From NCBI RefSeq assembly GCF_013122565.1, contig NZ_CP053258.1: a DNA stretch of 64,000 nt, one strand, 5' to 3'. The notes beneath the pieces are model-generated. The model saw only the letters and a program-made list of their open reading frames with translations. It ran no database searches and was not told the DNA's origin. The number at the start of each line of letters is the position of its first letter. The first letter of the stretch is position 1. Source of the stretch: Escherichia coli. Lineage in GTDB: Bacteria; Pseudomonadota; Gammaproteobacteria; Enterobacterales; Enterobacteriaceae. A program made the position numbers and the translations under genes. This document shows, one piece after another, positions 6,209 through 57,988 of this stretch.

Positions 6209-6278
6209 GTGTTTTAGTTGCCGTGGAAACTTTTCGCCTGTCTCTGGCAGGCCTGGGATCGGTGGCAAGCACATTACG

Positions 6279-6493: not shown

Positions 6494-7543
6494 ATGGCAA
6501 CAGGCACGCAGCCCGATGCTGGGCAGATCCTCAACTCGCTGATTAACAGTATTTTGTTAATCGATGACAACCTGGCGATCCATTACGCCAACCCCGCCGC
6601 GCAACAACTGCTCGCCCAAAGCTCCCGCAAATTGTTTGGTACACCGTTACCGGAACTGTTGAGCTACTTCTCATTAAATATCGAGCTGATGCAAGAAAGT
6701 CTGGAGGCGGGGCAAGGTTTTACCGATAACGAAGTGACGCTGGTCATCGACGGGCGCTCGCATATCCTTTCTGTGACGGCCCAGCGTATGCCGGACGGCA
6801 TGATCCTGCTGGAGATGGCGCCGATGGATAACCAGCGCCGCTTAAGCCAGGAACAGCTACAACATGCTCAACAAGTTGCTGCCCGTGATTTAGTGCGTGG
6901 CCTGGCACATGAGATTAAAAATCCGCTTGGCGGTTTACGTGGCGCGGCGCAGCTTCTCAGCAAAGCATTACCTGACCCTTCACTGCTGGAATATACCAAA
7001 GTGATTATCGAACAGGCGGACCGGCTGCGAAATCTGGTCGACCGTCTGTTGGGGCCGCAACTACCCGGTACGCGCGTTACCGAAAGTATTCACAAAGTGG
7101 CTGAACGCGTGGTGACGCTGGTGTCGATGGAACTGCCGGACAACGTGCGGTTGATTCGTGATTACGACCCCAGCCTGCCGGAACTGGCGCACGACCCGGA
7201 TCAAATTGAACAGGTCTTGCTGAATATTGTGCGCAATGCGCTACAGGCGCTGGGGCCTGAAGGCGGTGAAATCATTCTGCGGACCCGCACCGCGTTTCAA
7301 CTGACCTTACACGGCGAGCGCTATCGGCTGGCGGCGCGGATTGATGTGGAAGACAACGGGCCGGGCATTCCGCCTCATTTGCAGGATACGCTGTTTTACC
7401 CGATGGTCAGCGGCCGCGAAGGTGGCACCGGGCTTGGCTTATCCATCGCCCGTAATTTGATTGATCAGCATTCAGGCAAAATTGAATTTACCAGTTGGCC
7501 AGGTCATACCGAGTTCTCGGTTTACCTGCCTATCAGGAAATAA
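6494..7543 (+). CDS. glnL: Nitrogen regulation sensor histidine kinase NtrB (NRII)
   Basis: 349-aa ORF with H-box ([11 protein letters not shown]) and ATPase G-boxes; follows glnA. Confidence 0.95.
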
Positions 7544-7554
7544 AGGTGACGTTT

Positions 7555-8964
7555 ATGCAACGAGGGATAGTCTGGGTAGTCGATGACGATAGTTCCATCC
7601 GTTGGGTGCTTGAACGTGCGCTCGCTGGAGCGGGTTTAACCTGTACGACATTTGAGAACGGCGCGGAGGTACTGGAGGCGCTGGCGAGCAAAACGCCGGA
7701 TGTGCTGCTTTCAGATATCCGTATGCCGGGAATGGACGGGCTGGCACTGCTCAAGCAGATTAAACAGCGCCATCCGATGCTTCCGGTCATCATTATGACC
7801 GCACATTCCGATCTGGATGCTGCCGTCAGCGCCTATCAACAAGGGGCGTTTGATTATCTGCCCAAACCGTTTGATATCGACGAAGCCGTGGCGCTGGTTG
7901 AGCGCGCCATCAGTCATTACCAGGAACAGCAGCAGCCGCGTAATGTTCAGCTTAATGGCCCAACGACCGATATCATCGGCGAAGCGCCAGCCATGCAGGA
8001 CGTGTTCCGTATTATCGGTCGGCTTTCGCGTTCTTCTATTAGCGTGCTGATTAACGGCGAATCCGGCACCGGTAAAGAACTGGTCGCTCATGCCCTGCAT
8101 CGCCACAGTCCGCGAGCCAAAGCGCCGTTTATCGCGCTGAATATGGCGGCTATCCCGAAAGATTTGATCGAATCAGAACTGTTTGGTCACGAGAAAGGCG
8201 CATTTACCGGCGCGAATACCATTCGTCAGGGGCGTTTTGAACAGGCTGATGGCGGTACATTATTTCTCGATGAAATTGGCGATATGCCGCTGGATGTGCA
8301 GACGCGTTTGCTGCGCGTGCTGGCAGACGGTCAGTTTTACCGCGTTGGCGGCTATGCGCCGGTGAAAGTGGATGTGCGGATTATCGCTGCCACTCACCAG
8401 AATCTCGAACAGCGGGTGCAGGAAGGTAAGTTCCGTGAGGATCTGTTCCACCGCCTGAACGTTATCCGCGTTCATCTGCCGCCGCTGCGCGAACGTCGGG
8501 AAGATATTCCCCGTCTGGCGCGCCATTTTTTACAGGTTGCCGCGCGCGAACTGGGCGTAGAAGCGAAGTTGCTGCATCCGGAAACCGAAGCTGCTCTGAC
8601 GCGTCTGGCGTGGCCAGGCAACGTGCGCCAGCTGGAAAACACCTGCCGCTGGCTAACAGTGATGGCCGCCGGGCAGGAAGTGTTGATTCAGGATTTGCCC
8701 GGCGAACTGTTTGAATCAACGGTTGCGGAGAGTACTTCGCAAATGCAACCGGACAGTTGGGCGACACTTTTAGCGCAGTGGGCAGACAGAGCGCTGCGTT
8801 CCGGTCATCAAAACCTGCTTTCCGAAGCGCAGCCTGAGCTGGAGCGGACATTATTGACGACCGCGTTGCGACATACACAGGGGCATAAACAGGAAGCGGC
8901 GCGGCTACTCGGCTGGGGCCGCAACACCCTGACGCGTAAGTTAAAAGAGCTAGGGATGGAGTGA
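7555..8964 (+). CDS. glnG: Nitrogen regulation response regulator NtrC (NRI), sigma54 activator
   Basis: Starts [12 protein letters not shown] (receiver domain), AAA+ GESGTGKE and GAFTGA motifs, C-terminal HTH; start chosen at ATG 7555 with RBS aaggtga rather than the longer ORF start. Confidence 0.95.
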
Positions 8965-9384: not shown

Positions 9385-10758
9385 TTAAATCACCCGAGAG
9401 AACTGCTGCATCCGCGCTTTCTGGCGCAGATAGGTATCAAAGCACATGCAAATGTTGCGGATCAGCAAGCGACCTTTCGCCGTCACCTGTATTCCCTTCT
9501 CATCCACATCCACCAGCCCATCTTTTGCTAATGGGGCGAGCAGCTTGAGATCTTCCGCAAAGTAATCAGCGAAGTGCAAATCCCACTGTTTCTCAATAGG
9601 GGCGTAATCCAGACGGAAGTTGCAGATGAGCGACTTAATCACATCGCGGCGAATACAGTCATCACGCGTTAGCGCAATACCACGCCACAGCGCGTTGCCT
9701 TGTTCATCCACTTGCTGATAGTACTGCTTCAACTCTTTCTGGTTCTGCGCGTAGCAGTCGCCAATCATGCTGATGGCGGAAACGCCCATCCCCAGCAGAT
9801 CGGTATCGCCCTGAGTGGTGTAGCCCTGGAAGTTACGATGCAGCACGCCTTCACGCTGGGCCACCGCCAGCTCGTCATCCGGACGGGCAAAGTGATCCAT
9901 ACCGATAAACTGATAGCCCGATTGCGTCAGGAAGGCGATGGTTTCCTGCAGGATATCGAGTTTTTGCTGCGGACTCGGCAGGTCAGCATCTTTGATTTTG
10001 CGCTGAGCAGCAAAAATGGTCGGCAGATGCGCATAGTTAAAGACGCTCAGACGGTCAGGGTTTAGCTCCGCCACGCGTTTCAGGGTAAAGGCGAAACTTT
10101 CCGGCGTCTGTTTCGGCAGGCCGTAAATCAGGTCGATGTTGGTGGAGGTAAAGCCAATCTCACGCGCATGGTTAAGCAGCGCAAAGATAAACTCTTCATC
10201 CTGCTCGCGGTTAACCAGACGTTGCACTTCTTTGTTGAAGTCCTGCACGCCCATACTCAGGCGATTAAAGCCCTCGGCGCGTAAATGATCGAGTACATCC
10301 AGTTCGATTTCCCGCGGATCGACTTCGATCGAAATCTCCGCATCGGCATTGAACTGGAAGTTTTCGCGCAGCAGCTTCATCAGGCGGCTGATTTGCGCTT
10401 TATTAAGATACGTCGGCGTTCCGCCGCCCCAGTGCAGCTGGCTGACGTGACGCCCGGCGAACAGCGGTGCACGATGGACGATTTCTTGCTCCAGCGCGTC
10501 CAGATACTGATCGGCCTTGTGCTGCTGGCGAGTAACAATCTTATTACAACCGCAGAAGTAACAAAGCTTATGGCAGAACGGGATATGTACGTAGAGAGAT
10601 AATGGACGCTCAGGATAGCGCGCCACGGCTTGTAAAAACGCCTGTTCGCCGAAGTCTTCTGAAAACTCCAGCGCGGTCGGGTACGAGGTGTATCGTGGCC
10701 CGGAATAGTTATATTTCTGGATCAGGGCCAGATCCCAGTCGATTTGCTGTACAGACAT
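9385..10758 (-). CDS. hemN: Oxygen-independent coproporphyrinogen III oxidase (radical SAM)
   Basis: ORF with CHKLCYFCGC motif and WGGGTPTYL; start trimmed to MSVQQIDWDL. Confidence 0.93.
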   Translation of the reverse strand: MSVQQIDWDLALIQKYNYSGPRYTSYPTALEFSEDFGEQAFLQAVARYPERPLSLYVHIPFCHKLCYFCGCNKIVTRQQHKADQYLDALEQEIVHRAPLFAGRHVSQLHWGGGTPTYLNKAQISRLMKLLRENFQFNADAEISIEVDPREIELDVLDHLRAEGFNRLSMGVQDFNKEVQRLVNREQDEEFIFALLNHAREIGFTSTNIDLIYGLPKQTPESFAFTLKRVAELNPDRLSVFNYAHLPTIFAAQRKIKDADLPSPQQKLDILQETIAFLTQSGYQFIGMDHFARPDDELAVAQREGVLHRNFQGYTTQGDTDLLGMGVSAISMIGDCYAQNQKELKQYYQQVDEQGNALWRGIALTRDDCIRRDVIKSLICNFRLDYAPIEKQWDLHFADYFAEDLKLLAPLAKDGLVDVDEKGIQVTAKGRLLIRNICMCFDTYLRQKARMQQFSRVI

Positions 10759-10946
10759 GCTCACTCCTTCCGATGGCGTCTCTGGCGGCTACGGCGTACC
10801 GGCGGATGCCCGTTTCGGGTCATCAGCCGGTTGCGCAGCCACTTTTGTCGCCGCGACAACCGCTGTAGTTTAACGAATAACCACACCAGATAACATATAA
10901 CCGGAAGGGTTATCAGCAGAACGGGAAGGCCCACGGCGGAAATCCG

Positions 10947-11456
10947 TTAGTTACCCCGCAGCAGACGCATCATGTCTTCTTGCTTCTCGTCTTCTTCCTC
11001 TTCTTCGTCATCGTCATAAGAGAGGCCGAGTTTCTGCATCAACTCATCAATACGATCCAGTTTAGCATCCACCCAGGATTGCTCTTCGGCGCTCAGGGTT
11101 TCGCCTGCTTCCAGACGTTCCAGCAGCGCATCCAGACGCTCATCCGTTTCCAGTAATTCCAACTCCGCCTGCGGTGAAAGCATAGGTTTCTCACTCTTCG
11201 GTTTGTGCTGTTTGGTGACTTTTTCAGTCACGCCCAATGGAATAGGGGTTTTGCTGCCAATACGTGGATCTTTCGGTGCGTTCTGGCCTTTGCTGCCTGA
11301 CGTGGTGTTACCGCCCGCTGCGCGGCTGCCCGGCGCATGACCACGACGTTTTTTCTGACGCTTACGGTCACGAGCTTCCTGATCCAGCTCCTCGCGTGTT
11401 TTTCGACGCGCTTTTGCATGACCTTTGCTGCGTGAGTTTGAAGATGATGGTTTCAT
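10947..11456 (-). CDS. yihI: Der GTPase-activating protein YihI
   Basis: Highly basic N-terminus, acidic C-terminal tail [14 protein letters not shown]; start set at internal MKPSSSNSR. Confidence 0.85.
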
Positions 11457-11524
11457 AATGGTTCGTCTTTTAGCCGTTTTATTCAGTATAGATTTGCGGC
11501 GGAATCTAACAGAAAGCAAGCAAA

Positions 11525-11789
11525 GAAAAAAGGCGACAGATTACTCTGTCGCCTTTTTTCCTGACTCATAACCCTTAACGGGTCTTACAATCCTTGCAGG
11601 CCGCCAACACACCCTGTTTTTCCATTAGCCGGAACAATCCGTGTTGATTCCATTTCCGTTTAATTACGTCTCCGGACGTTTGTCTTCCTGACAATCCTCT
11701 GTCTTCGCCTCCTGGCGCTCCTGACCCTCATCCTGAGTCATTGTTCCTGTTAGCGTCCTCGCTCTATGGGTGCTACTTTACGCCTTTGC
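11525..11789 (-). ncRNA. csrC: CsrC small RNA (CsrA-sequestering)
   Basis: Reverse complement reads ATAGAGCGAGGACGCTAACAGGAACAATGACTCAGGATGAGGGTCAGGAGCG... with many GGA motifs, ending in the hairpin aaggcgacagagtaatctgtcgcc + U-run; sits between engB and yihI. Confidence 0.85.
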
Positions 11790-21999: not shown

Positions 22000-22119
22000 A
22001 TGCCTGGCAGTTCCCTACTCTCGCATGGGGAGACCCCACACTACCATCGGCGCTACGGCGTTTCACTTCTGAGTTCGGCATGGGGTCAGGTGGGACCACC
22101 GCGCTACGGCCGCCAGGCA
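22000..22119 (-). rRNA. rrfA: 5S ribosomal RNA
   Basis: Reverse complement matches TGCCTGGCGGCCGTAGCGCGGTGGTCCCACCTGACCCCATGCCGAACTCAG...GGGAACTGCCAGGCAT. Confidence 0.97.
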
Positions 22120-22211
22120 AATTCTGTTTTATCAGACCGCTTCTGCGTTCTGATTTAATCTGGATCAGGCTGAAAATCTTCTCTCATCCGCCAAAACAGC
22201 TTCGGCGTTGT

Positions 22212-25115
<2,904 letters not shown>

Positions 25116-25289
25116 TCACAACCCGAAGATGTTTCACTTCAGAGTTGCGAAAATTTGAGAGACTCACGAACAACTTTCGTTGTTCAGTGTTTCAATTTTC
25201 AGCTTGATCCAGATTTTTAAAGAGCAAAACTTCGCAGTGAACCTTTGCAGGTACACTCTGAAGTATTTTTTATTTAATCACTACAGAGA

Positions 25290-25365
25290 TGGTGGAGCTA
25301 TGCGGGATCGAACCGCAGACCTCCTGCGTGCAAAGCAGGCGCTCTCCCAGCTGAGCTATAGCCCC
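25290..25365 (-). tRNA. alaT: tRNA-Ala (anticodon UGC), rrn spacer
   Basis: rc = GGGGCTATAGCTCAGCTGGGAGAGCGCCTGCTTTGCACGCAGGAGGTCTGCGGTTCGATCCCGCATAGCTCCACCA. Confidence 0.97.
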
Positions 25366-25407
25366 ATAACATGTAGTTAAAACCTCTTCAAATTTGCGGT
25401 GCAAATT

Positions 25408-25484
<77 letters not shown>

Positions 25485-25552
25485 GTAGAGGTTTTACTGC
25501 TCATTTTCATCAGACAATCTGTGTGAGCACTGCAAAGTACAGTTCTTTAAGG

Positions 25553-27094
<1,542 letters not shown>

Positions 27095-27264
27095 AAAAGT
27101 TTGATGCTCAAAGAATTAAACTTCGTAATGAATTACGTGTTCACTCTTGAGACTTGGTATTCATTTTTCGTCTTGCGACGTTAAGAATCCGTATCTTCGA
27201 GTGCCCACACAGATTGTCTGATAAATTGTTAAAGAGCAGTGCCGCTTCGCTTTTTCTCAGCGGC

Positions 27265-27305
27265 GCGGGGTGTGCATAATACGCTTTCCCGCTACAGAGT
27301 CAAGC
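27265..27305 (-). promoter_or_regulatory. rrn P2 promoter
   Basis: Minus strand TTGACT ... TATTATG with downstream GC-rich discriminator (cacaccccgcgccgc). Confidence 0.7.
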
Positions 27306-27379
27306 ATTTTTTTGCTTTTCTCTGTTGAGATTCTCAGGAGAACCCCGCTGACCCGGCGGCGTGTTTGCCGTTGTTCCGT

Positions 27380-27470
27380 GTCAGTGGTGGCGCATTATAG
27401 GGAGTTATTCCGGCCTGACAAGAGGAAATTTAAAATAATTTTCTGACCGCGCATTTTTTATTCTTTATGC
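27380..27470 (-). promoter_or_regulatory. rrn P1 promoter with AT-rich UP element/Fis region
   Basis: Minus strand TTGTCAGGCCGGAATAACTCCCTATAATGCGCCACCACTG, the canonical rrn P1 core, with AT-rich upstream tract. Confidence 0.8.
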
Positions 27471-54712: not shown

Positions 54713-56542
54713 CTACTCTTCGTCATCGCCATCAACATGTGCACGAATCAGCGCCATAAACGGTTTGCCAAAGCGTTCCAGCTTGCGCATCCCAACGCCG
54801 TTAACGCTGAGCATTTCGCTGGCAGTGATCGGCATCTGTTCAGCCATCTCAATCAAGGTCGCGTCGTTAAACACCACGTACGGCGGGACATTGCTTTCAT
54901 CGGCAATCGATTTACGCAGTTTGCGTAATTTGGCGAACAGTTTGCGATCGTAGTTGCCGCCGAAGGATTTCTGCATCGCTTTCGGTTTGAGCGCCACGAT
55001 ACGTGGCACGGCAAGTTGCAAAGAGGATTCGCCGCGCAGCACCGGACGCGCAGCCTCTGTCAGTTGTAGGGCAGAATGCTGGGCAATATTTTGCGTCACC
55101 AGGCCGAGGTGAATCAGCTGGCGGATCACGCTCACCCAATGTTCATGGCTTTTATCACGGCCCATGCCATAGACTTTCAGTTTGTCATGACCATAGTCGC
55201 GGATACGCTGGTTATTAGCGCCACGAATCACTTCCACCACATAACCCATCCCAAACCGCTGATTCACCCGACCAATGGTGGAAAGGGCAATCTGTGCATC
55301 GGTTGAACCATCGTACTGTTTCGGCGGATCGAGGCAAATATCGCAGTTCCCGCACGGCTCCTGCCGCCCTTCGCCAAAATAGTTCAGCAATACCAGACGA
55401 CGGCAAGTTTGCGCTTCGGCAAAAGCGCCCATCGCATTGAGTTTATGACGTTCGATATCCTGCAACTGCCCCTGCGGCTTCTCTTCCAGGCAACGGCGCA
55501 GCCACGCCATATCCGCCGGATCGTAAAACAGCATCGCTTCCGCGGGCAGGCCATCACGCCCGGCGCGTCCGGTTTCCTGATAATAGGATTCGATATTGCG
55601 CGGAATGTCAAAATGCACCACGAAGCGGACGTTAGGTTTGTTGATGCCCATGCCGAACGCCACCGTCGCCACCACAATTTGCAGGTCATCGCGCTGGAAT
55701 TTCTCCTGCACGTCGGCGCGAATATTATTTTCCAGCCCGGCATGATAGGCCGCCGCGCTGATACCCTTGCTTTGCAGACGCGCGGCGGTGTCTTCTACTT
55801 TCGCCCGACTGTTGCAGTAAATAATCCCCGACTTACCGCGTTGTTCCTGCACGTAGCGCATCAGCTGATCGAGAGGTTTGAACTTCTCCATCAGCATGTA
55901 GCGAATATTCGGACGGTCAAAACTGCTAATTTGAATCAGCGGATCGTTCAGCCCCAGCAGGCGCACGATATCCTGGCGCGTGGTGTCGTCGGCTGTGGCG
56001 GTCAGCGCCATAAACGGCAGCGTCGGGAACCGCTGGCGCAACTGACCGAGCGCGGCATATTCCGGGCGGAAATCGTGGCCCCATTGGGAGATACAGTGCG
56101 CTTCATCAACGGCTAATAACACCGGATTCCAGTGCGCCAGATGCTCAAGAAAGTTATCCAGCATCAGGCGTTCCGGCGCGATATACAGTAAGCGAATTTG
56201 CCCGGTGCGACAGCCTGTCATCACGTCAAGTTGCTGCTCGCGGGTTTGCGTCGAGTTAAGGCACGCCGCCGCCACGCCGTTGGCTTGCAGTTGATCCACC
56301 TGATCTTTCATCAACGAAATCAGCGGTGAAACAACCACAGTAAGGCCGTTTAGCAATAAGGCAGGAATTTGATAGCAAAGGGATTTTCCGCCACCAGTGG
56401 GCATGACAACCAGGCAATCGCGACCGGAAAGCACAGTGTCGATAATTTCTTCCTGGCCGGGGCGAAACTGTTGGTAGCCAAAGGTTTCTTGTAAAACCTG
56501 TTTAGCTCCGGACTCCAGATTCAACACTTCCGCCTGCGCCAC
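54713..56542 (-). CDS. recQ: ATP-dependent DNA helicase RecQ
   Basis: DEAH helicase core ([25 protein letters not shown]), RQC zinc cluster CGNCDIC and HRDC domain; GTG start (alternative GTG two codons upstream at 56548). Confidence 0.96.
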
Positions 56543-56557
56543 ATTCACCCCGATTGC

Positions 56558-56591
56558 CTGAAATAAAAACAGGCGCTATTTTCAGCGCCTG
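56558..56591 (-). terminator. Intrinsic terminator immediately upstream of recQ (ends the pldA / orphan-ORF transcript)
   Basis: Minus strand cagcgcctg... caggcgct-gaaaat-agcgcctg followed by TTTTTATTT, about 15 nt before the recQ GTG. Confidence 0.7.
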
Positions 56592-56611
56592 CGCGAGAAA
56601 CTGCAATGCTT

Positions 56612-57070
56612 TTAGTCTCTGAGAGGGTAATCCTGGATACTGGATTCCAGATTTGTCAGGATCAAAGCGACATCGGCATCCGCCAAACGAAACTCCGCCT
56701 GCCATATATTCTCTGACGTATGAAACGTAGGGCATAGCCCGCAAGCCAGTATCACATTGATAATAATGACATCACCGGAATACCCTGTGTATTCGAACTC
56801 CAGGCATGGCTCGGTAAATTCCAGATTTTTCTCTGGGTAGCCATCGGGAGAAGGGCGCTGCAACAATGTGGTAAACCACCTATGAAGCTTTGTTAAGTCA
56901 TATGTCCCTATTGCCGGATCTATCTTTTCAAACCGCTGATTTCCCTGCGTCACGCCCACTTTGAGGAATAACCAGTTACCATCCCAGAAATTACTGGTAT
57001 CAGGATACTGATACCCCATAACATCCAGCGTCAAAGTAACGGCCAGCTCACTATTGCTTAACGTAATCAT
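56612..57070 (-). CDS. Hypothetical 152-aa cytoplasmic protein, no recognisable family
   Basis: Uninterrupted ORF filling nearly all of the 570-bp pldA-recQ spacer; no TM segments or signal peptide evident; weak SD; not a gene I can place in the K-12 gene order. Confidence 0.55.
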   Translation of the reverse strand: MITLSNSELAVTLTLDVMGYQYPDTSNFWDGNWLFLKVGVTQGNQRFEKIDPAIGTYDLTKLHRWFTTLLQRPSPDGYPEKNLEFTEPCLEFEYTGYSGDVIIINVILACGLCPTFHTSENIWQAEFRLADADVALILTNLESSIQDYPLRD

Positions 57071-57118
57071 AGCATTTGATTTTTAAACAAAAATTAGGTG
57101 CTGGCACTCTACCATGCA

Positions 57119-57988
57119 TTAAAACAGGTCGTTTAGCATAACTCCCACACCGACGCGGGTCTGGTTAAAGTTATAGTCGATGAGCGATTCGCCGTAACCG
57201 CTGTAGACCTGGGTATAAAGACGTACATGTTTGGTGATCGGGTAACTTAAGCCTAACTCCGCGCCGCCGTAGCCGGTGTTCCAGTTGTACTGTCCTTTCG
57301 CACTGAGCACCGCATCACCGAGGTGATAGCCGATTTTAAGCTGGTAGTAACCCATATATTTGGTGATATCCGGGTTATCGTCAGTATTACCCACCACATA
57401 CCACGGCTTCACTTCTACCAGCCAGTTACCGTTTTCTGCCATCAGGCGAGTATAAAGGCGGTTCCAGCTGCGGGAGGTCGGGTCTGAACGCCCGTTAGAG
57501 TCGTGGTTATACCCCATCTCTACATCGCGCAACGTCCAGCCTGCAAAACGGTAATCGGTGGCAAAACCGAGGAACAATTGCGGTTCGTAGTTGGTTTCAC
57601 GAAACGGTGAAGACTCTTCGCTATTGGACAGTTGCCACCAGGATTTTTGCGTATAAGACGCACCCAACACCGAGTTCGGGCCTAAAATCCCACGCCACAG
57701 CGGAAATGCCAGGCTCAACTGAAACTTTACTTCATCCTTACGCGCATTTTCCGCCCAGTCGTAACTGGCAATAGCTTCTTTATTCAGATCGCTGGTTTGT
57801 GTGTAGATGAGGTAGTTGGTGTCATAAGGATAGAGCGTGAACGGATTGTCATGCTCCTGCAGCATATTGGCGATAATACTGCCACGCACCGCTGGCGCGT
57901 CATGCACCTCTTTCACCGTTGCCTCTTGTGCATATACTGCCATAGGCAACATAAACACCGGCAACAACCAGCCCTGCAGAGTCCGCAT
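57119..57988 (-). CDS. pldA: Outer membrane phospholipase A
   Basis: 289-aa ORF with signal peptide and beta-barrel alternating pattern, C-terminal ...VGVMLNDLF. Confidence 0.95.
   Translation of the reverse strand: MRTLQGWLLPVFMLPMAVYAQEATVKEVHDAPAVRGSIIANMLQEHDNPFTLYPYDTNYLIYTQTSDLNKEAIASYDWAENARKDEVKFQLSLAFPLWRGILGPNSVLGASYTQKSWWQLSNSEESSPFRETNYEPQLFLGFATDYRFAGWTLRDVEMGYNHDSNGRSDPTSRSWNRLYTRLMAENGNWLVEVKPWYVVGNTDDNPDITKYMGYYQLKIGYHLGDAVLSAKGQYNWNTGYGGAELGLSYPITKHVRLYTQVYSGYGESLIDYNFNQTRVGVGVMLNDLF

Follow-up and report, generated by a model that had tools for sequence, protein, structure and literature searches.

A WapI-family gene in the pldA-recQ slot of Escherichia, with two divergent allele types and a deletion scar in K-12

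Introduction

The genes pldA and recQ are separated by 132 nt in Escherichia coli K-12 MG1655 and by 576 nt in the E. coli chromosome analyzed here, where the spacer holds a reading frame of 152 codons. The locus raises the questions of whether this frame is a gene, how it came to be present here and absent from K-12, and what its product might do. The DNA analyzed, called the window, is a stretch of 64,000 nt of contig NZ_CP053258.1 (assembly GCF_013122565.1), and coordinates refer to it unless another locus is named.

Layout of the locus and transcription signals

The pldA gene, the 152-codon frame and recQ lie on the same (minus) strand. The coordinates agree with a sequence-only reading that had placed a 459-nt frame 48 nt past the pldA stop. 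The features are as follows:

57119..57988, minus strand: pldA (outer-membrane phospholipase A), a 289-aa ORF, named pldA in matching E. coli records
57071..57118, minus strand: leader from the pldA stop to the ATG of the ORF, 48 nt, AU-rich (from the sequence)
56612..57070, minus strand: WapI-family gene, 152 aa plus stop, 459 nt, ATG start (ORF and Pfam PF24716)
56660..57104, minus strand: segment absent from K-12-type E. coli, a net 444-nt deletion (alignments and K-12 sequence)
56612..56659, minus strand: last 15 codons plus stop, a fossil in K-12 and essentially all E. coli
56559..56592, minus strand: intrinsic terminator (hairpin scan and fold), invariant in all aligned spacer sequences
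54713..56542, minus strand: recQ, downstream neighbor, start annotated in K-12 as GTG

The 5′ end of recQ is at 56548 if the first GTG is taken and at 56542 if the K-12-annotated start is used, and the distance from the end of the terminator to the recQ start is 10-17 nt. The terminator-like hairpin at 56592-56569, whose 10-bp stem includes 6 G-C pairs, is followed by TTTTTATTT to about 56559; the 61-nt stretch around it folds at -20.3 kcal/mol (z -2.5). The strong terminator reported earlier just before recQ, a hairpin with a U-run, was thus recovered, as was the slightly lower GC content of the ORF (0.43-0.48 vs 0.51-0.60 in the flanks).

The leader was 100% identical between the window and E. 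albertii. A promoter and terminator scan of its 48 nt returned no promoter-like site and no terminator, inspection of its sequence revealed no clear Shine-Dalgarno sequence, and it was predicted to be unstructured, with no stable fold (z +0.5). Since no promoter-like site or terminator was found between pldA and the ORF, co-transcription is the simplest reading, and pldA, the upstream neighbor, is probably the operon partner of the ORF. PldA was identical in amino-acid sequence (100%) to other E. coli alleles. In K-12-type strains, the terminator is conserved as the terminator of pldA. An Rfam search over the spacer gave sub-threshold noise and no family.

The scan also flagged as terminator-like an 8-bp hairpin within the ORF (56996-57015, minus strand, codons 19-25), which folds well (-15 kcal/mol, z -3.6). 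It was rejected as a terminator and is probably incidental, because it is part of the coding region and its conservation does not extend to the E. albertii allele.

At the other end of the spacer, the terminator 10-17 nt upstream of the recQ start (56542-56592) was conserved in all aligned Escherichia sequences. Any recQ promoter inside the 132-nt spacer of K-12 would overlie the fossil of the deleted gene.

Family membership

The frame had been described as an orphan without a recognizable motif. That description did not hold: a Pfam scan gave a full-length match to PF24716 (Immunity protein WapI-like family), its sole match (E 1.8e-21, residues 12-149 against positions 9-138 of the 138-position model), and an identical protein is present in RefSeq as WP_171460068.1, "WapI family immunity protein [Escherichia coli]". 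PGAP gives the gene of E. coli N3 the same name. The gene belongs to a known, already annotated family. An exhaustive HMM search returned about 985 homologous clusters at 50% identity, and PF24716 was present in every homologue found; the named clusters are mostly from Bacteroidota, with Bacillus, Spirochaetota and scattered Enterobacterales. Residues W33, W65, F85-x-E87-P88 and P149-x-R151 are invariant or nearly so across phyla, and the family-conserved residues are kept in the window protein. The full-length Pfam match, the roughly 985 clusters, a dN/dS of about 0.3 and a frame that is intact in all alleles seen establish that the 152-codon ORF is a genuine gene and not a chance ORF.

Further searches did not extend the assignment. 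The PDB sequence search with the 152-aa protein gave no match and NCBIfam gave noise only; the Imm42 HMM (PF15593) did not match, and the Pfam scan at E<=10 returned WapI only. Fourteen longer family members, examined by Pfam scan, contained WapI domains only, some in tandem duplicate, or carried unannotated extensions; none combined WapI with a toxin or with a different immunity domain.

Deletion of the gene in K-12-type strains

The sequence-only reading had taken the K-12 spacer to be short, correctly, and had proposed a strain-specific insertion in the window. The whole gene was found in 2 of 5,426 complete E. coli genomes (N3 and GF43, each 96.9% identical to the window). Alignment of the interval to K-12 and other E. 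coli nevertheless reversed the direction of the proposed event, revealing a 444-nt deletion there and no insertion in the window. In the K-12-type spacer, the 14-15 nt that follow the pldA stop lead straight into the last 15 codons of the gene, its stop and the terminator; what is removed is the proximal 34 nt of the leader together with codons 1-137. "Empty" E. coli sites therefore retain 48 nt of the gene. In MG1655, these read TTG GCA AAT CTG GAA TCC AGC ATC CAG GAT TAC CCT CTC AGA GAC TAA, or LANLESSIQDYPLRD followed by a stop; translation of the 15 surviving K-12 codons and stop corresponding to 56612..56659 gave ANLESSIQDYPLRD and a stop. The K-12 fossil peptide is identical to the C terminus of a 152-aa allele and carries the conserved YPxR motif of the family.

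The gene is absent from, and its last 15 codons, stop and terminator are kept in, 5,423 of the 5,426 complete genomes, the fossil having been checked by eye in K-12 and two other genomes. The first 69 nt of the query (query bases 1-69, window 56590-56658), which begin at the terminator and enter the ORF at its 3′ end, were matched in 5,425 of the 5,426 genomes, with 98.6% identity in the listed records. The window flanks were about 97-100% identical to K-12 per 200-nt bin, and for the 12.5-kb stretch from rmuC to recQ the best complete-genome match was 98.1%.

The same slot is occupied outside E. coli. E. albertii NBRC 107761 carries a 160-aa PF24716 gene between pldA and recQ, and so does a second assembly with the 160-aa type. 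The earlier suggestion of inserted cargo found no counterpart in the sequence: a search for flanking repeats detected no target-site duplication and no terminal or inverted repeats, only short repeats at chance level, and no recombinase or integrase gene was present. Because of the K-12 fossil, the synteny with E. albertii and the lack of insertion signatures, the gene is concluded to be ancestral to the pldA-recQ slot in Escherichia; the main E. coli lineage lost it by deletion.

The fossil and the corrected direction of the event are new. The familiar short pldA-recQ spacer of K-12 is a deletion scar that still encodes the C terminus of the lost gene, and this bears on how that spacer, with the pldA terminator and the region upstream of recQ, is interpreted.

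Several differences in gene content were seen nearby. N3 (10073-11742 of the retrieved locus) and GF43 (9883-11552) have extra YPO3983-family and DUF943 genes beside a corA fragment; this insertion lies between yigF and corA, and the window is without it. A Transposase_31 (Rpn-family) gene lies a few kb away, between rhtC and rhtB (locus 7103-7963), in the second assembly that carries the 160-aa type.

Two allele types and their rates of evolution

The window protein and its E. albertii counterpart were 44-50% identical in amino-acid sequence, whereas PldA and RecQ were 96-98% identical. Synonymous divergence from E. albertii was likewise higher in the gene (dS 1.68) than in the flanks (0.55-0.75), and dN/dS was about 0.3 for the gene, both within E. 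coli and against E. albertii, vs 0.00-0.03, or about 0.01, for pldA and recQ. The reading frame was intact and its length unchanged in every allele seen, so the stop codons in close relatives that would have spoken against a gene were not found. The kept frame and the dN/dS of about 0.3 therefore indicate purifying selection on the gene, far weaker than on its neighbors.

The divergent part of the gene is its body. No base differs between the window and E. albertii over the 3′ end of pldA, the leader and the first 16 codons; after codon 16 the alleles diverge abruptly, with indels, and they re-converge over the last ~15 codons and the terminator. The allele of N3 and GF43 is a recombinant of both types: it joins a body of the window type to a 3′ tail of the E. 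albertii type, which ends in IQHYPARR and the stop (N3 locus 6213-6260 against window 56612-56660). According to protein-cluster records, the 152-aa type occurs in E. coli and E. fergusonii and the 160-aa type in E. albertii, E. fergusonii and a few E. coli; no E. albertii-type allele was found in the complete E. coli genomes. On these alignments and records, the gene has two strongly divergent allele types whose ends are conserved, and each type occurs in more than one species. This dimorphism with conserved ends, common to several Escherichia species, is also new. Cassette-like dimorphism across species is expected of a gene facing a variable external opponent, and the locus offers a clean natural example of a conflict-type gene in which one core-genome slot holds two divergent, recombining allele types across Escherichia species.

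About 120 nt at the start of the gene and upstream of it (window 57001-57140, E. albertii locus 2710-2830) were 100% identical, and the surrounding genes differ by 8-15%. The block could be a recombination handle, or the leader and N terminus could be constrained.

Predicted structure and charge

The structure search suggested earlier was informative. An AlphaFold2 model built from a 98-sequence alignment had a pLDDT of 94.6 and a pTM of 0.88, with the topology ββββα-ββββα, and the top Foldseek matches in the PDB were PURA repeats and Arabidopsis WHY1. The predicted fold is thus Whirly/PUR-like, of the kind called "sPC4L" (ββββα×2). Neighbors in AFDB50 with TM scores of 0.85-0.91 included E. 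fergusonii B7LU34, proteins from Budviciaceae and Bacillus, and two proteins annotated "Immunity protein 42". A 2022 paper (PMC9424270) documents that immunity proteins use the sPC4L fold as a scaffold, two CdiI structures among them; the two chains concerned (4NTQ_B and 5FFP_A) were absent among the top Foldseek matches. The sPC4L/Whirly/PUR proteins to which the window protein can be likened are MRP1/2, Pur-alpha, Why1/2 and the CdiI chains 4NTQ_B and 5FFP_A.

With overall charge as a proxy for nucleic-acid binding, the window protein (pI 4.33, net charge -12) differs from the Whirly/PUR single-stranded nucleic-acid-binding proteins: the ββββα repeat fold is common to them and, as predicted, to the window protein, but a positive overall charge is expected of such binders and the window protein is strongly acidic. 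Acidity is a family trait (median pI 4.8; 90% of 98 members below pI 6). It suits a nuclease inhibitor, not a nucleic-acid binder. The product is predicted to be small, acidic and cytoplasmic.

Neighborhoods of homologues

In the window, the gene has no toxin gene as a neighbor, and the 64 kb contain no Rhs or CdiA gene, the largest ORF being 928 aa. Homologues were then considered in 13 other lineages, drawn from the best 150 of about 985 clusters: E. albertii, Leminorella, Gilliamella, a putative Leptospira, Cellulophaga, Pedobacter, a Methylomonas plasmid, the B. cereus group, a gerA-adjacent spore-former and four further contigs. A recognizable Rhs, CdiA or LXG toxin adjoined the homologue in 0 of the 13, and among the contexts sampled from these best 150 clusters no close homologue was beside a cognate toxin. 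This consistent absence of a neighboring toxin is new. The label "WapI family immunity protein" covers a large set of genes without a neighboring toxin.

The settings were diverse. The Leminorella homologue is placed after a Sel1-repeat gene. An AcrB-type pump precedes the homologue on a metagenome contig whose DUF1564 gene suggests Leptospira; one sampled contig has its homologue next to arfA and rplQ, and the spore-former has it beside gerA. Same-strand runs of small unannotated genes contain the homologues of Cellulophaga and Pedobacter. In Gilliamella, the order hpt-X-tamA was seen in 3 of 3 loci inspected, and the gene is syntenic across species at 52-54% identity vs 77-92% for its neighbors. 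A search that started from a Bacillus homologue returned only solitary B. cereus-group genes; copies in this group were 67-96% identical across many named species, with the slot checked in one cluster. The pldA gene was considered as a functional partner and rejected, because homologues in other genera sit elsewhere and do not adjoin it.

In Leminorella grimontii (locus 6848-8480), the homologue begins 1 nt after the 383-aa Sel1-repeat gene. The tblastn match there begins 51 nt before the first ATG, GTG or TTG, so the gene has either an unusual start codon or a damaged 5′ end.

A tblastn search of plasmids gave two weak matches only. On Methylomonas koyamae plasmid pFW12EY (7376-9322), a distant homologue lies between genes for a 5′-deoxynucleotidase (yfbR) and an ADP-ribosylglycohydrolase. 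Its surroundings also hold DUF1819 and DUF1788 genes, which we take to be BREX BrxA and BrxB, and the setting looks like a defense island.

Discussion

What the protein does must be judged from its family, its fold and the pattern of its evolution. The reading that we favor, at roughly even confidence, is that of a solitary immunity-type protein, made from the pldA transcript, that guards against an RNase toxin delivered by competitors, exists as two old allele types and has been discarded by most E. coli. The gene would be transcribed with pldA, both ending at the common terminator. Its acidic product would bind and block a toxin domain, presumably of the RNase type, which competing bacteria would inject on Rhs, CDI, T6SS or similar carriers, and the cell that carries the gene would survive a weapon that it does not itself encode.

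B. subtilis WapI neutralizes the tRNase toxin WapA (PMC3967940; PMC5566331; PMC8321402); its gene directly follows wapA, and the protein acts specifically on that toxin (PMC8321402). The window protein resembles WapI in matching the same Pfam family at full length and in being a small cytoplasmic protein of about 140-160 aa, but WapI adjoins wapA and the window gene and all sampled homologues lack a toxin neighbor. Imm42 (PF15593) was defined by its pairing with Ntox18, a toxin domain on RHS and filamentous-hemagglutinin proteins that is predicted to be a two-histidine endo-RNase (PMC3482391); the likeness to it is one of structure only, through the Imm42-annotated neighbors at TM 0.85-0.91. 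The features found at the locus (an immunity-family gene, no cognate toxin and variable presence among strains) are those of an orphan immunity gene. As in the orphan immunity and polyimmunity loci of Zhang et al. (2012; PMC3482391), the gene is without a toxin and strain-variable; unlike those loci, it is single, sits in a fixed core slot and has been syntenic since before the split of E. coli and E. albertii.

Family membership in Pfam and RefSeq, the predicted sPC4L scaffold, the Imm42 structural neighbors and the acidity fit an immunity function, and a fast-evolving core between conserved ends, a chimeric N3 allele and dispensability are typical of a conflict gene. Against this, the absence of a toxin neighbor in the window and in 13 other lineages weakens the case, as does the absence of fusions to known immunity or toxin domains. 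One chromosomal slot kept for long in Escherichia and Gilliamella is unusual for arms-race cargo, and residues invariant across phyla hint at one conserved partner rather than many toxins. The tie to B. subtilis WapI, the sole characterized member, is made through the Pfam model.

The main rival reading, which we consider rather unlikely, is that of a conserved cytoplasmic sPC4L protein with a partner other than a toxin, to which the WapI immunity label has been over-extended from one characterized member. An example would be an acidic mimic of nucleic acid, or a regulator, that binds an endogenous or phage-encoded nuclease or DNA-binding protein. The solitary state of the gene in every lineage sampled, the stable slots, the close B. 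cereus-group copies, the cross-phylum motifs and the one plasmid homologue beside ADP-ribosylglycohydrolase and BREX-like genes all speak for it. Yet almost all E. coli have dispensed with the gene at no apparent cost, neither PADLOC nor PHROGs returned a match, and both the non-synonymous evolution, about 30 times faster than that of the neighbors, and the presence of two allele types in more than one Escherichia species point to a variable opponent outside the cell. A version that takes up this last point, in which the solitary PF24716 clade consists of acidic Whirly-like nucleic-acid mimics directed against an external agent other than a toxin (such as a phage nuclease or DNA-binding protein), with balancing selection and a single deletion in E. 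coli, seems to us improbable. It would entail balancing selection that has maintained both old allele types between pldA and recQ in several Escherichia species, and the loss of the gene from most E. coli in one deletion.

The sequence-only reading had guessed at immunity or phage-defense cargo; the former agrees with the Pfam and RefSeq family, and PADLOC, PHROGs and phage genomes yielded nothing for the latter. Small size, GC content below that of the flanks and strain-variable presence are what anti-phage cargo or the antitoxin of a toxin-antitoxin pair, inserted between core genes, might display. This is nevertheless very unlikely, given that no PADLOC family was found for either Escherichia allele, that no PHROG match was meaningful, that tblastn detected no homologue in 50,697 phage records and that neither strand carries an adjacent toxin ORF; the lack of target-site duplication, inverted repeats and integrase, together with the K-12 fossil and E. 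albertii synteny, signifies deletion and not insertion. Least credible of all is a decaying relic without remaining function. Although the gene is deleted in nearly all E. coli and lacks a clear Shine-Dalgarno sequence, a relic would be at odds with the intact frame and unchanged length of every allele, a dN/dS well below 1 in both comparisons, the retained family residues and the confidently predicted fold.

Other observations on the window

Elsewhere in the window, positions 22000-27400 contain almost no ORFs of at least 120 aa, which suggests a ribosomal RNA operon.
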